From sequence record PQ014731.1: 64,000 bases of DNA. One strand, given 5' to 3'. The notes below the pieces were generated by a model, which saw only the letters and a program-made list of their open reading frames with translations, searched no databases and was not told the DNA's origin. The position numbers and the translations under genes are program-made. Every line of letters begins with the position of its first letter. Position 1 is the first letter of the stretch. Shown here in pieces: positions 7,883 through 62,676 of this stretch. The stretch is from Escherichia phage VB-EcoM-WM.

Positions 7883-7911
7883 TTGCGTATTAACTCAAAA
7901 TCTGGTAAAAT
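7883..7911 (+). promoter_or_regulatory. sigma70-like promoter with TG-extended -10
   Basis: TTGCGT, 17-nt spacer, TGgTAAAAT; the shared core caaaat[c/t]tggtaaaata recurs at 13700. Confidence 0.5.
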
Positions 7912-7942
7912 AACTATCATGATTGTTTAACCGGGAGGCACA

Positions 7943-8533
7943 ATGTTTTTATGGGAAAGGCCTAGATACCTTCCAGATATTAGATTGGAGCTGCTGGCAG
8001 ATATTGTTACGTTTAAAAGTCCGTTTACAGGTAAAACGCAAAAAGTAACCTATGCCACACCTAACTGGAAAGGCACTTTGACGGTTTCCAATATCAGCGA
8101 GTCACAGTTGCTAGAGCTTAAGAGCTTTGTTGATCAGGTGTATAAAGATGGAAACATCTTTCTTATTAAAACTTACGGTCACTCAGTAACAGCTAATGAG
8201 CCAATCGCCCTCGGGCCTACTGGTAACGATGATTTTTTGAGGACGGTTGGGTGGGAGCCAAACAGAGACATAGCCAGAGCTGGGGATAAAATATCTGTCA
8301 ATGATGAATTGAAAGTGGTAACAGCTCCAGTGCGTAGCGATGGTGTTGGGTCTGCTGTTATAAGCATATCTCCAAGACTTAGAAAACCTATTGCCGCAGG
8401 GGACACTATGAAGATAATAACTCAATCCCCGAAGGGTAGGTTTCATATCAGAGATATTTATAAAATTAAGCAAAAAGTCGATGCTATGCAAAAAGGGGAT
8501 AATATAGTTATCAACTTCTTTGAGGATTTCTAA
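7943..8533 (+). CDS. putative minor tail protein
   Basis: 196 aa; first of three short genes directly upstream of the gpJ-like gene; call is by position only. Confidence 0.35.
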   Translation: MFLWERPRYLPDIRLELLADIVTFKSPFTGKTQKVTYATPNWKGTLTVSNISESQLLELKSFVDQVYKDGNIFLIKTYGHSVTANEPIALGPTGNDDFLRTVGWEPNRDIARAGDKISVNDELKVVTAPVRSDGVGSAVISISPRLRKPIAAGDTMKIITQSPKGRFHIRDIYKIKQKVDAMQKGDNIVINFFEDF

Positions 8534-8534
8534 G

Positions 8535-9086
8535 ATGATCAGAGCGCCATTAGATAATTTATTTCTTGAAAAGCTGGAGCTTGATGGTGTTGAGATCTTA
8601 ATTGCTGCAAAGCTGGAGCTACCGACAGGAACTGTCAGGGTGTGCTCAGGCACTGGTGTTGTAGTAATTGAGGGGCAACATTTTATAGGGATAGGTGGGT
8701 CAGCAACATTAACCGCTGTGTCTGAGAAAGATGCCACCAACTTCGGATCTGTGGTAGCGACATTGAACGGGTTTGATCCTAAGTATGTGGGTGATCTGCT
8801 GAAGACGGAGTATTCTGGTTGTCGTGCCACGTTGTACATTACCGCTATGGAGAATGGTCTGCCTGTTACAACTAATGGCTTGTTTGACGGCCTTATAACA
8901 GATATGGCTATTCAGACGGGTGAGAATAGCGCTTTGTCCATATCCATCTCTTCCATCTTCAACAGTTGGTTAAGAGGTTTTCCTTATCGGTACACGGAGG
9001 AAAGCCACAGCTCAAGAAACGATAACGACAGATTTTTTAAATATGTGGATCAGGTGGCGAGCCGCCCGATCATTTGGGAGGTTTAA
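8535..9086 (+). CDS. putative minor tail protein
   Basis: Track ORF 8520..9086 starts at TTG inside the upstream gene; ATG at 8535 follows RBS gagg and the upstream stop. Confidence 0.35.
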   Translation: MIRAPLDNLFLEKLELDGVEILIAAKLELPTGTVRVCSGTGVVVIEGQHFIGIGGSATLTAVSEKDATNFGSVVATLNGFDPKYVGDLLKTEYSGCRATLYITAMENGLPVTTNGLFDGLITDMAIQTGENSALSISISSIFNSWLRGFPYRYTEESHSSRNDNDRFFKYVDQVASRPIIWEV

Positions 9087-9511
9087 TGAGCACACATCCT
9101 CGTCTAGTGGACTGGCAAGAAAGATTGTGGAAAGTGTTTGACGAAGAGGCCACCATACCTTTTGAATGGGGATTCCACGATTGTTGCACCTTTGCAGCTA
9201 AGTGTGTTGATGCCCAATACGGAACAGATTTTCTTTCTAACTTCGAAGGAACGTATAAAACAGAGTTGGAAAGCAAAAGATGGTGCATGCTCCGTTTCAA
9301 AACCACACACCTGCCTACTATTTTTGATCTCTTTATGACTCGGCTGGATACTCCTAAACAGGTTCAGCGTGGAGATATTGTCATTTTCGAAGGTCTGAAC
9401 GGCCTCACCGCTGGTGTGTTCTGGAACAACCAGATTTGGGCGAAAGGTGATAAAGGGGTCTTTATGTTCGATATGAAAGATTCTATCGTTGTTGATGTCT
9501 GGAGGTATTAA
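9086..9511 (+). CDS. putative tail assembly protein
   Basis: Track start 9074 is TTG; ATG at 9086 overlaps upstream stop (TAATG) after RBS gggagg; contains FHDCCTF motif; directly precedes J-like gene. Confidence 0.35.
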   Translation: MSTHPRLVDWQERLWKVFDEEATIPFEWGFHDCCTFAAKCVDAQYGTDFLSNFEGTYKTELESKRWCMLRFKTTHLPTIFDLFMTRLDTPKQVQRGDIVIFEGLNGLTAGVFWNNQIWAKGDKGVFMFDMKDSIVVDVWRY

Positions 9512-62224: not shown

Positions 62225-62252
62225 CACCACAACGATTGAGAGAGGGAGCACT

Positions 62253-62423
62253 ATGGAGACTAAAATCTTAATTCTGGCTGTGATAGATACAACCGAAGGG
62301 GCTGTGTTCGAATCTGCAGGAGGGTATTTCTACCTACCCTACGGAAAAAGAACTGCTGAACCAGGTAAAGATTCAATCATCAAAGTGTTCCCGTGTGCTT
62401 TCTGGCTGGAGATTTTGGTATAA
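62253..62423 (+). CDS. small hypothetical protein (not in ORF track)
   Basis: 56-aa ORF METKILILAVIDTTEGAVFESAGGYFYLPYG... with RBS gagagggag, directly downstream of the promoter at 62196. Confidence 0.35.
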   Translation: METKILILAVIDTTEGAVFESAGGYFYLPYGKRTAEPGKDSIIKVFPCAFWLEILV

Positions 62424-62449
62424 GATTGCAGAGGATTTGGGAGAGAATT

Positions 62450-62644
62450 ATGAGAAACAAGAGAGAGCTTTACTCTGGCGAGTGGATAAACGATCAACAG
62501 GTTGGAGAGGTAACCTGCTTCCGGTGTTTTACTCGGTACAATCTTAAAACTGCACCAAAAAGTGTTCCAAAGACTGATGGTTATTACATAAAAGAGCCTC
62601 ATTGCCCGAAATGTAAATGCCGAGTATACTGGAGTAACCTGTAA
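62450..62644 (+). CDS. small zinc-ribbon protein
   Basis: CFRCF...CPKCKC; ATG 62450 after RBS ggagag (track start 62393 is an alternative codon). Confidence 0.4.
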   Translation: MRNKRELYSGEWINDQQVGEVTCFRCFTRYNLKTAPKSVPKTDGYYIKEPHCPKCKCRVYWSNL

Positions 62645-62648
62645 AAGA

Positions 62649-62676
62649 TTGACATCTGAAAGCTACAGTGTATAAT
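62649..62676 (+). promoter_or_regulatory. sigma70 consensus promoter
   Basis: TTGACA, 16 nt, TATAAT. Confidence 0.55.

Follow-up and report, generated by a model that had tools for sequence, protein, structure and literature searches.

Two classes of sigma-70-like promoters, early and late, predicted in the rV5-like Escherichia phage VB-EcoM-WM

We analyzed a stretch of 64,000 nucleotides (nt) from Escherichia phage VB-EcoM-WM (sequence record PQ014731.1), the whole of which is called the window below, and found two classes of promoter-like elements in it. Class E accompanies the early and replication genes and a leftward gene unit; class L stands at the head of late operons. Both have the sigma-70-like architecture that an earlier note on this DNA had ascribed to them: TTG at -35, a 17-nt spacer, and either TAnnnT or TGnTAAAAT at -10. 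We consider it likely that both classes are sigma-70-type promoters served by the host holoenzyme. If so, the sigma-70 holoenzyme of E. coli would transcribe the phage throughout infection from two promoter architectures, and the phage would have no RNA polymerase of its own. That the holoenzyme uses both classes, and that timing comes from the two architectures, we infer from the sequence.

Much of this has been predicted before. By megablast the window is a Vequintavirus, that is, an rV5-like myovirus of E. coli; long stretches are 93-99% identical to more than 100 GenBank phages, and its orientation is reversed relative to rV5 (DQ832317). For rV5, Kropinski et al. (2013, Virol J 10:76, PMC3606486) listed 33 sigma-70-like promoters, 11 of them with an extended -10. 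With MEME they also obtained a motif, TggTAaAAtA, in eight copies upstream of late genes, and compared it with the late box of T4. They reported no phage polymerase and no gp33, gp45 or gp55, and proposed an Srd homologue, gp11, as a possible switch. Table S4 of that paper includes one promoter, P036, among the sigma-70 as well as the late promoters. Their promoters P040, P036, P030, P231, P224, P220, P205 and P010/P011 are orthologous to sites in the window. The fixed TTG at 17 nt and the extended -10 reading are not emphasised in that paper. In the sister genus Certrevirus, which also has no RNA polymerase gene, the early promoter is sigma-70-like and reads AAAA(N3-4)TGTTGAC(N17-19)TATAAT (the CB7 paper; Buttimer et al. 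2020, PMC7344957). It has the architecture of class E, including the upstream A-tract, and is likewise found among short early open reading frames (ORFs) and near replication genes; no late class is described there. The promoter finding is thus already known as a prediction from the rV5 paper of 2013 and later Vequintavirinae papers. Its weight as a discovery is small, since the same early promoters, the TggTAaAAtA motif and the absence of a polymerase were predicted before. Only a site inside an intron and a site at 58180 are additions.

The late class is the more uniform of the two. According to our model it would head each late (tail, baseplate) operon right after an intrinsic terminator, with TG(G/A)TAAAAT(A) at -10 and a TTG or T-rich -35, and would be an extended -10 promoter, largely or wholly independent of contact at the -35. 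Three sites in the late region, all on the + strand, belong to it. The first, TTGCGT-17-TGG TAAAAT A (7883-7912), lies 32 nt before the ATG at 7943 and corresponds to rV5 P040, a "putative late promoter"; its hexamers and TGn are identical in four relatives. The second, TTGACT-17-TGG TAAAAT A (13700-13729), lies 34 nt before the GTG at 13762 of the baseplate-J gene and corresponds to P036. The third, TTGCAT-17-TGT TAAAAT A (20031-20060), is 29 nt from the start at 20088 and corresponds to P030. Each follows a terminator on the same strand, as the earlier note had it. The terminator at 7851-7870 (8 G-C pairs, loop TTCG, T-tract; rV5 t041) ends the operon of the tail-fibre gene 4031-7843, that at 13663-13684 follows a tail-tip gene of 1381 amino acids (aa), and that at 20010-20031 shares its final base with the -35 of the third site. 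The three promoters lie 0-15 nt 3' of these strong GC hairpins with T-tracts and 29-34 nt 5' of a start codon. Only four + strand intergenic gaps in the 29-kb late region exceed 40 nt, and the class L motif follows a terminator in three of them.

Such an arrangement is not expected by chance. The pattern TGNTAAAAT has 10 matches in the window against 3.7 +/- 2.0 expected, every one on the + strand; from its background rate, three matches within the 339 nt of late intergenic DNA have P ~1e-7. The fuller pattern TTG-N17-TGNTAAAA is found five times in 128 kb (both strands) against 0.31 +/- 0.54 expected, and none of 100 shuffles reaches five. These five are the three late sites, a site at 54286 inside the intron, and one at 58180 that the earlier note had overlooked; all five have TG at -15/-14. 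That note had described a TTGAC-like -35, a 17-nt spacer and TGnTAAAAT at 7883, 13700, 20031 and 54286. The description holds for the spacers and for the -10 of the three late sites; the -35 hexamers of two of these have only TTG in common with TTGACA. TAAAAT, with A at -11 and T at -7, is present at 7906, 13723, 20054 and 58203, whereas the intron site has TAAAAG at 54309. In the whole rV5 genome there are six perfect copies of TGnTAAAATA on the late strand, and TTG is found exactly 17 nt upstream of all six, within the hexamers TTGCAA, TTGCTT, TTGACA, TTGCGT, TTGACT and TTGCAT.

The class L elements always stand just 3' of terminator hairpins, and this raises the question of whether they are promoters. 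They might instead be conserved signals in RNA or DNA that go with the terminators, for example processing or protein-binding sites, and the late operons would then be transcribed by read-through from a small number of promoters further upstream. The late terminator at 23173-23194 is followed by no promoter, so read-through must occur at least there, and the 58180 copy lies within a stable hairpin whose G-U pairs are workable only in + strand RNA. Against this reading stand the exact geometry of -35, 17 nt, TGn and -10, seen in five of five window sites where 0.31 are expected, and a distance to the start codon fixed at ~30 nt. The same architecture stands before the endonuclease ORF of the intron, where there is no terminator, and no Rfam family matches any class L site. 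We regard this explanation as very improbable.

Conservation supports promoters of both classes. The comparison within the genus set the window against rV5, EmilHeitz, BP9 and two IMG/VR contigs, a sample in which the counts are not phylogenetically independent. For class L the hexamers and TGn show 0 changes in 225 positions, the spacer 5 in 210 and the flanks 24 in 889. For class E the corresponding values are 22/516 for hexamers, 74/603 for spacers and 207/2523 for flanks, and the hexamer changes are concentrated in three intragenic candidates, 56445, 57256 and 31681. The trend is clear nonetheless: both promoter classes are kept while their surroundings diverge. These three scanner matches we reject as promoters; their hexamers are not conserved in relatives and they are probably due to chance.

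Across the subfamily we aligned baseplate-J orthologues and examined 37 IMG/VR loci; the comparison covers 13 distinct lineages with 50-99% protein identity. In 13 of 13 Vequintavirinae lineages a terminator is followed by TG(G/A)TAAAATA, with small changes in two: L035 has TGTTATTATA, and in L052 the box ends in G. Nine of the ten motif positions carry 1.6-2.0 bits (the n position has 0.7), compared with less than ~0.7 bits at most flanking positions. TG at -15/-14 is present in all 13 representatives, while spacer and leader are essentially randomised among them. Conservation at the -35 is limited to the first two T's (2.0 and 1.6 bits) and a G/T (1.0 bit). Depending on the genus, the hexamer is TTGACT, TTGCAA, TTTATA, TTTTAA or TTTTAT, and the -10 block is unchanged. 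Because the -10 block is conserved while the -35 diverges among genera, the extended -10 block would be the functional core of class L. The TGnTAAAAT box is also present in other late intergenic gaps of CR3, a Klebsiella phage and an Erwinia phage; in more distant Aeromonas relatives (42% identity) the module of terminator and box is absent upstream of baseplate-J.

Class E has a different anatomy. In our model it would combine an A-tract at about -42, similar to a proximal UP element, with a near-invariant TTGACA, a 17-nt spacer and a variable TAnnnT, and would depend on sigma region 4 and the -35. TTGACA-N16-18-TANNNT has 19 matches in the window against 3.07 +/- 1.59 expected, which agrees with the near-consensus sites reported for the early region; outside the late unit there are 15 matches, 14 of them on the strand that is transcribed. 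Anatomy was derived from 17 candidates that had partly been chosen for -35 likeness to TTGACA; in them TTGA is invariant, followed by C in 16 and A in 15. The spacer is 17 nt in 13 candidates, 16 nt in two and 18 nt in two. All 17 have a -10 with A in second and T in sixth place, in such forms as TATAAT, TACAAT, TATGAT, TAAGAT, TATTAT and TATAGT, and TG extends the -10 in only four. An A/T-rich block lies at -7 to -5 from the -35 (A/T fractions 0.94, 0.82 and 0.76).

The individual early sites are as follows. A divergent pair separates the leftward from the rightward genes: TTGACT-17-TATAGT (35688-35716, +; rV5 P010) directs rightward, and TTGACA-17-TGG TAAGAT (35646-35674, -; P011) leftward, where it would drive an Srd-like gene. 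TTGACA-17-TACAAT (47840-47868, +; P231), which could be early or middle, is 100% conserved in rV5 and EmilHeitz. TTGACA-17-TGC TATTAT (55681-55709, +; P224) keeps its hexamers in relatives with an altered spacer. Further candidates on the + strand are TTGACA-17-TAAGAT (56543-56571; P220), TTGACA-17-TATAAT (56881-56909), TTGACA-17-TGC AATTAT (60960-60988), TTGACA-17-TGG TATAGT (62196-62224) and TTGACA-16-TATAAT (62649-62676; P205). Those at 56881 and 62649 match the consensus hexamers at 12 of 12 positions; the latter, with a 16-nt spacer, has a -10 ending at 62676, where the region described in the earlier note also ends. Within the leftward unit TTGACA-17-TATGAT occurs twice on the - strand, at 29541-29569, where the orthologous position in rV5 holds P025, and at 32012-32040, where it is fully conserved. 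A hybrid of the two classes, TAGACA-17-TGT TAAAAT (36874-36902, +), lies 42 nt before an ORF at 36944.

Class L resembles a known kind of sigma-70 promoter. Extended -10 promoters of E. coli have TG at -15/-14, A at -11 and T at -7, and their -35 is weak or dispensable. All of these features are found at 7883, 13700, 20031 and 58180; the intron copy is without the T at -7. The extended -10 promoters of E. coli are less uniform than class L, in which TAAAAT is fixed across genera and is usually followed by A.

Several points weigh against our model, and we list them together. We found no transcript 5' ends or kinetics in the literature for any Vequintavirinae phage. The invariance of TG(G/A)TAAAATA over 10 nt is tighter than sigma-70 normally requires, with A at the third -10 position in all lineages but one and A at -6 in most, so an additional specificity factor may be involved. 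In several genera the T's of the -35 merge into the T-tract of the terminator, and their conservation may therefore not reflect sigma contact. On naked DNA, a class L element that has TTG at -35 should be active early, as a good constitutive sigma-70 promoter would be, and the model alone therefore leaves late timing unexplained. Since ~87% of PHROG families have no known function, an unrecognised factor could be present, and so could remote homologues of known ones. Finally, the intron site at 54286 carries G at -7. A G at this position is normally very damaging to recognition of the -10 by sigma-70, and it argues that this copy would be weak for sigma-70.

These points lead to a competing explanation, in which the late motif (TGGTAAAATA) is read by host core or holoenzyme together with a phage-encoded specificity factor. 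This could be a late sigma similar to gp55 or a sigma appropriator, and the resemblance to an extended -10 would then be partial. Such a factor would explain why a 10-nt box is near-invariant across genera between randomised flanks while the -10 hexamers of class E vary freely. It would also account for the delayed expression that structural genes need, which a constitutive sigma-70 promoter does not supply. Most early ORFs have no known function, and the box ends in the same five bases, AAATA, as the T4 late box TATAAATA; the authors of the rV5 paper had remarked on this resemblance. Nevertheless, only five of the eight positions of TATAAATA agree with the motif, and three do not. TTG at 17 nt, in six of six rV5 late sites, and the invariant TG at -15/-14 are signatures of sigma-70 regions 4 and 3, respectively, and they are missing from T4 late promoters. 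No gp55, gp33, gp45 or other sigma-like product was seen among the scanned products of the window, and none genome-wide according to the rV5 paper. The phage has a T7-like family A DNA polymerase, and no sliding-clamp gene is annotated. Taken together, we judge a specificity factor of this kind to be unlikely.

T4 itself deserves a more direct comparison. Its late promoters (TATAAATA, served by gp55, gp33 and the gp45 clamp) share with class L an A/T-rich -10 box upstream of structural genes and the final AAATA. They have neither the TG extension nor TTG at 17 nt, whereas class L has both, and class L has no TATAAATA box at -13 to -6. We therefore reject a reading of class L as T4 late promoters: it has a TG extension and a fixed TTG at 17 nt, and gp55, gp33 and gp45 are missing among the scanned products. 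A reading of the -35 TTGC(A/T)T as a MotA box was also rejected; no MotA homologue was found among those products, and the TGC lies ~3 nt too far upstream for that box.

The earlier note had reported neither a phage RNA polymerase gene nor a T7-type promoter. We scanned 52 window products with PHROGs and/or Pfam. They comprise two large late ORFs without annotation and, from the leftward unit and the early region, nearly all predicted products that are unannotated in relatives; the other structural and replication genes were assigned from annotation of relatives. None of the 52 matches a subunit of RNA polymerase, a sigma factor, a protein like AsiA or MotA, or a late factor of T4 (gp55, gp33, gp45). 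Ten further rV5 products, encoded outside the window between the late operons and the divergent point, gave no polymerase, sigma, AsiA/MotA-like or late-activator match. All large ORFs encode structural or replication proteins. A single-subunit T7-type system would consist of a phage RNA polymerase gene and a repeated promoter of ~20 nt; in the window we found neither, the direct-repeat families longer than 16 nt being terminators or coding repeats only. Reliance on host RNA polymerase is thus well supported computationally, and the rV5 (PMC3606486) and CB7 (PMC7344957) papers conclude likewise for whole genomes.

Only one product in the window is linked to sigma-70. This is the 329-aa product of the Srd-like gene (34625-35614, -; rV5 ORF11), called "anti-sigma factor" in relatives. 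It matches phrog_4592, "decoy of host sigma70" (2.7e-12), and phrog_1400, "Srd anti-sigma factor" (4.5e-10), in both cases over the first ~100-190 residues only. Within the first ~110 residues there are further matches, to endonuclease VII and other endonuclease families; a family labelled HNH endonuclease matches over the full length, and there is no Pfam match. The evidence for the anti-sigma label is thin. For T4 Srd, later work points to a link with RNase E and not with sigma.

How, then, could late genes be delayed? In other phages a switch between promoter classes acts on sigma itself: gp39 and gp76 of the Thermus phage P23-45, with its middle/late promoters, and AsiA of T4 are phage proteins that block sigma region 4 and recognition of the -35; promoters dependent on the -35 are silenced, and those with an extended -10 stay active. 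A switch of this type would suit the two architectures seen here, although among the products that we scanned we saw no homologue of gp39, gp76 or AsiA. One possible route to timing is a phage factor that would weaken late recognition of the -35 and thereby favour class L. The earlier note had suggested temporal control through the TG-extended TAAAAT class, with which the sequences are compatible, and we would go no further than this. Going beyond it, TG(G/A)TAAAATA may mark a late switch of Vequintavirinae that has not been described, either a small protein disabling region 4/-35 recognition or a specificity factor that reads the box; we offer this tentatively and consider it doubtful. In its first form the early class, dependent on TTGACA, would be turned off while the extended -10 class would still run. 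If true, either form would be a new kind of host-polymerase takeover, in a large group of phages that are used in therapy and have no T4-like late genes. The question of how late genes are delayed when no late factor is known has been stated for a related group in the Felix O1 paper. The split between a class E that would need the -35 and a class L with an extended -10 and a box invariant across genera makes a concrete hypothesis for this delay. Apart from mechanism, the modules of terminator and promoter are handy landmarks in annotating or engineering therapeutic rV5-like phages.

The first of the two additions to the known promoters lies inside a predicted group I intron of the DNA polymerase gene (54210-55011, +), which carries an HNH homing-endonuclease ORF (54360-54866) in P6. 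Rfam at its gathering threshold gave no match in the whole window. The intron surfaced only in a permissive E-value search, with 29.6 bits (gathering score 50), E 2.2e-5 and a full-length P1-P9 alignment to Intron_gpI. Relatives annotate the polymerase as a joined coding sequence around the HNH gene, and the ORF has a weak HNH_3 match in Pfam. The promoter-like element TTGACT-17-TGG TAAAAG (54286-54314, +) lies in the P5 loop, 46 nt before the ATG of the HNH ORF. Its -10 reads TGGTAAAAG and not TAAAAT, with G at the final position.

We aligned six variants of this intron. With an HNH ORF, that of CR9 has TTGATA-17-TAATAT in the P5 loop and that of GEC_vB_MG has TTGATA-17-TAAAAT A at the same place; a variant bearing a LAGLIDADG ORF has TTGACA-17-TACTAT there. 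The ORF-less intron of RudolfGeigy has a short P5 loop from which the element is absent. In SYGMH1, which is 98.7% identical and has lost the ORF by a recent deletion, the element is retained. An element with -35, 17 nt and -10 is therefore found in the P5 loop of all four ORF-bearing variants despite sequence divergence. A promoter inside the intron is supported because this geometry is kept wherever the endonuclease gene is present. We suggest that this class-L-like promoter would drive the homing-endonuclease ORF independently of the polymerase gene. Such an arrangement has a precedent in the group I introns of T4, where internal promoters drive homing-endonuclease ORFs such as that of I-TevI. 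In both cases the endonuclease ORF lies in a peripheral loop and has its own promoter, a putative one in the window, and ribosome-binding site inside the intron. In the window the putative promoter is in the P5 loop with the ORF in P6, and it has the shape of sigma-70 or class L promoters rather than that of T4 middle or late promoters. As annotated, rV5 has no endonuclease-bearing intron in its polymerase gene, which is why 54286 is missing from the rV5 list.

The polymerase gene may contain a second insertion. The polymerase ORF (50827-54225, 1132 aa) has 324 additional in-frame codons relative to the rV5 polymerase, at 52840-53811 (+), with the junctions ...GDAH|CYSGDTQIL... at the N-terminal and ...VAVCGN|CNN at the C-terminal side. 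Pfam found no domain in this insertion. Judged on splice-junction residues only, it seems to be an intein, in which case the gene would hold both an intein and a group I intron.

The other addition is the fifth TTG-17-TGnTAAAATA site, TTGTAA-17-TGC TAAAAT A, located within 58180-58221 (+), with a 121-aa ORF and an SSB-like gene of 423 aa downstream; a counterpart is not listed for rV5. Its -10 lies at the apex of a hairpin of 14 base pairs (58191-58221; -18.2 kcal/mol, z -5.9). In the Klebsiella and PVP-SE1 orthologues the site reads TTGACA-17-TAAGAT or TTGACA-17-TAATAT, within an equivalent hairpin that is conserved in Klebsiella and Salmonella relatives (20520-20560, -, in L008 and 22215-22255, -, in L006, for the window region 58186-58226, +). 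Three G-U pairs in the window hairpin favour a structure of + strand RNA. The hairpin may act on read-through transcripts, as a signal for processing or attenuation, or it may be an operator.

The overall layout of the window was derived from annotations of BP9, EmilHeitz and rV5. Late tail, baseplate and fibre genes occupy 1-28850 (+; rV5 ORF44 to ORF27). They are followed by the leftward unit of 16 mostly small genes (28895-35674, -; ORF26 to ORF11), the last of which is the Srd-like gene. The remainder (35757-64000, +) holds rIIA/B, helicases, methylases, primase-helicase and the family A DNA polymerase, and then many short early ORFs.

Two kinds of database records deserve a comment. BP9 (GenBank PP488543.1; L001) is the closest record, 99% identical in the late region. 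After rIIB its phage sequence stops, and positions 43177-49908 hold genes of a bacterial or prophage kind, among them IS2 InsA, an integrase and AlpA; this suggests a misassembly or an insertion in the record. Beyond rIIB we therefore dropped BP9 as a reference and took EmilHeitz and rV5 instead. Further, some 16-18 GenBank records named "Campylobacter phage" (MG0656xx, host C. jejuni) are 93-96% identical to positions 7000-15000 and 40000-64000 of the window, and their C. jejuni host labels look doubtful.

In the late region, the fourth of the large gaps (23100-23213, +) contains the terminator 23173-23194, followed by a lateral fibre gene of 1878 aa with no promoter between them. TTGACA-17-TGA TATTGT is located 5' of this terminator, within the preceding gene. 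Expression of the fibre gene would therefore require read-through of the terminator. Two terminator hairpins recur almost verbatim, CCCCGCTTCGGCGGGG three times (7853-7880, 13666-13693 and 39843-39870) and GCCCTGCCCGAAAGGGTGGGGC twice (47891-47917 and 60500-60526). The 1381-aa tail-tip gene contains, at 11800-12462 (+), five diverged copies of a unit of ~60 nt spaced by 132-186 nt, which indicates a repeated protein module.

Around the divergent pair of early promoters there are two further genes of note, one for a DUF2201 metallopeptidase/VWA-like protein (33131-34612, -) and one for a MoxR-like AAA ATPase (38248-39438, +). The two proteins may form a MoxR-VWA pair. Among the early products, that of 61642-62199 (+) has a weak Macro-domain match in Pfam and matches a PHROG family labelled "phosphatase" at 9e-59; it may be an enzyme that processes ADP-ribose.

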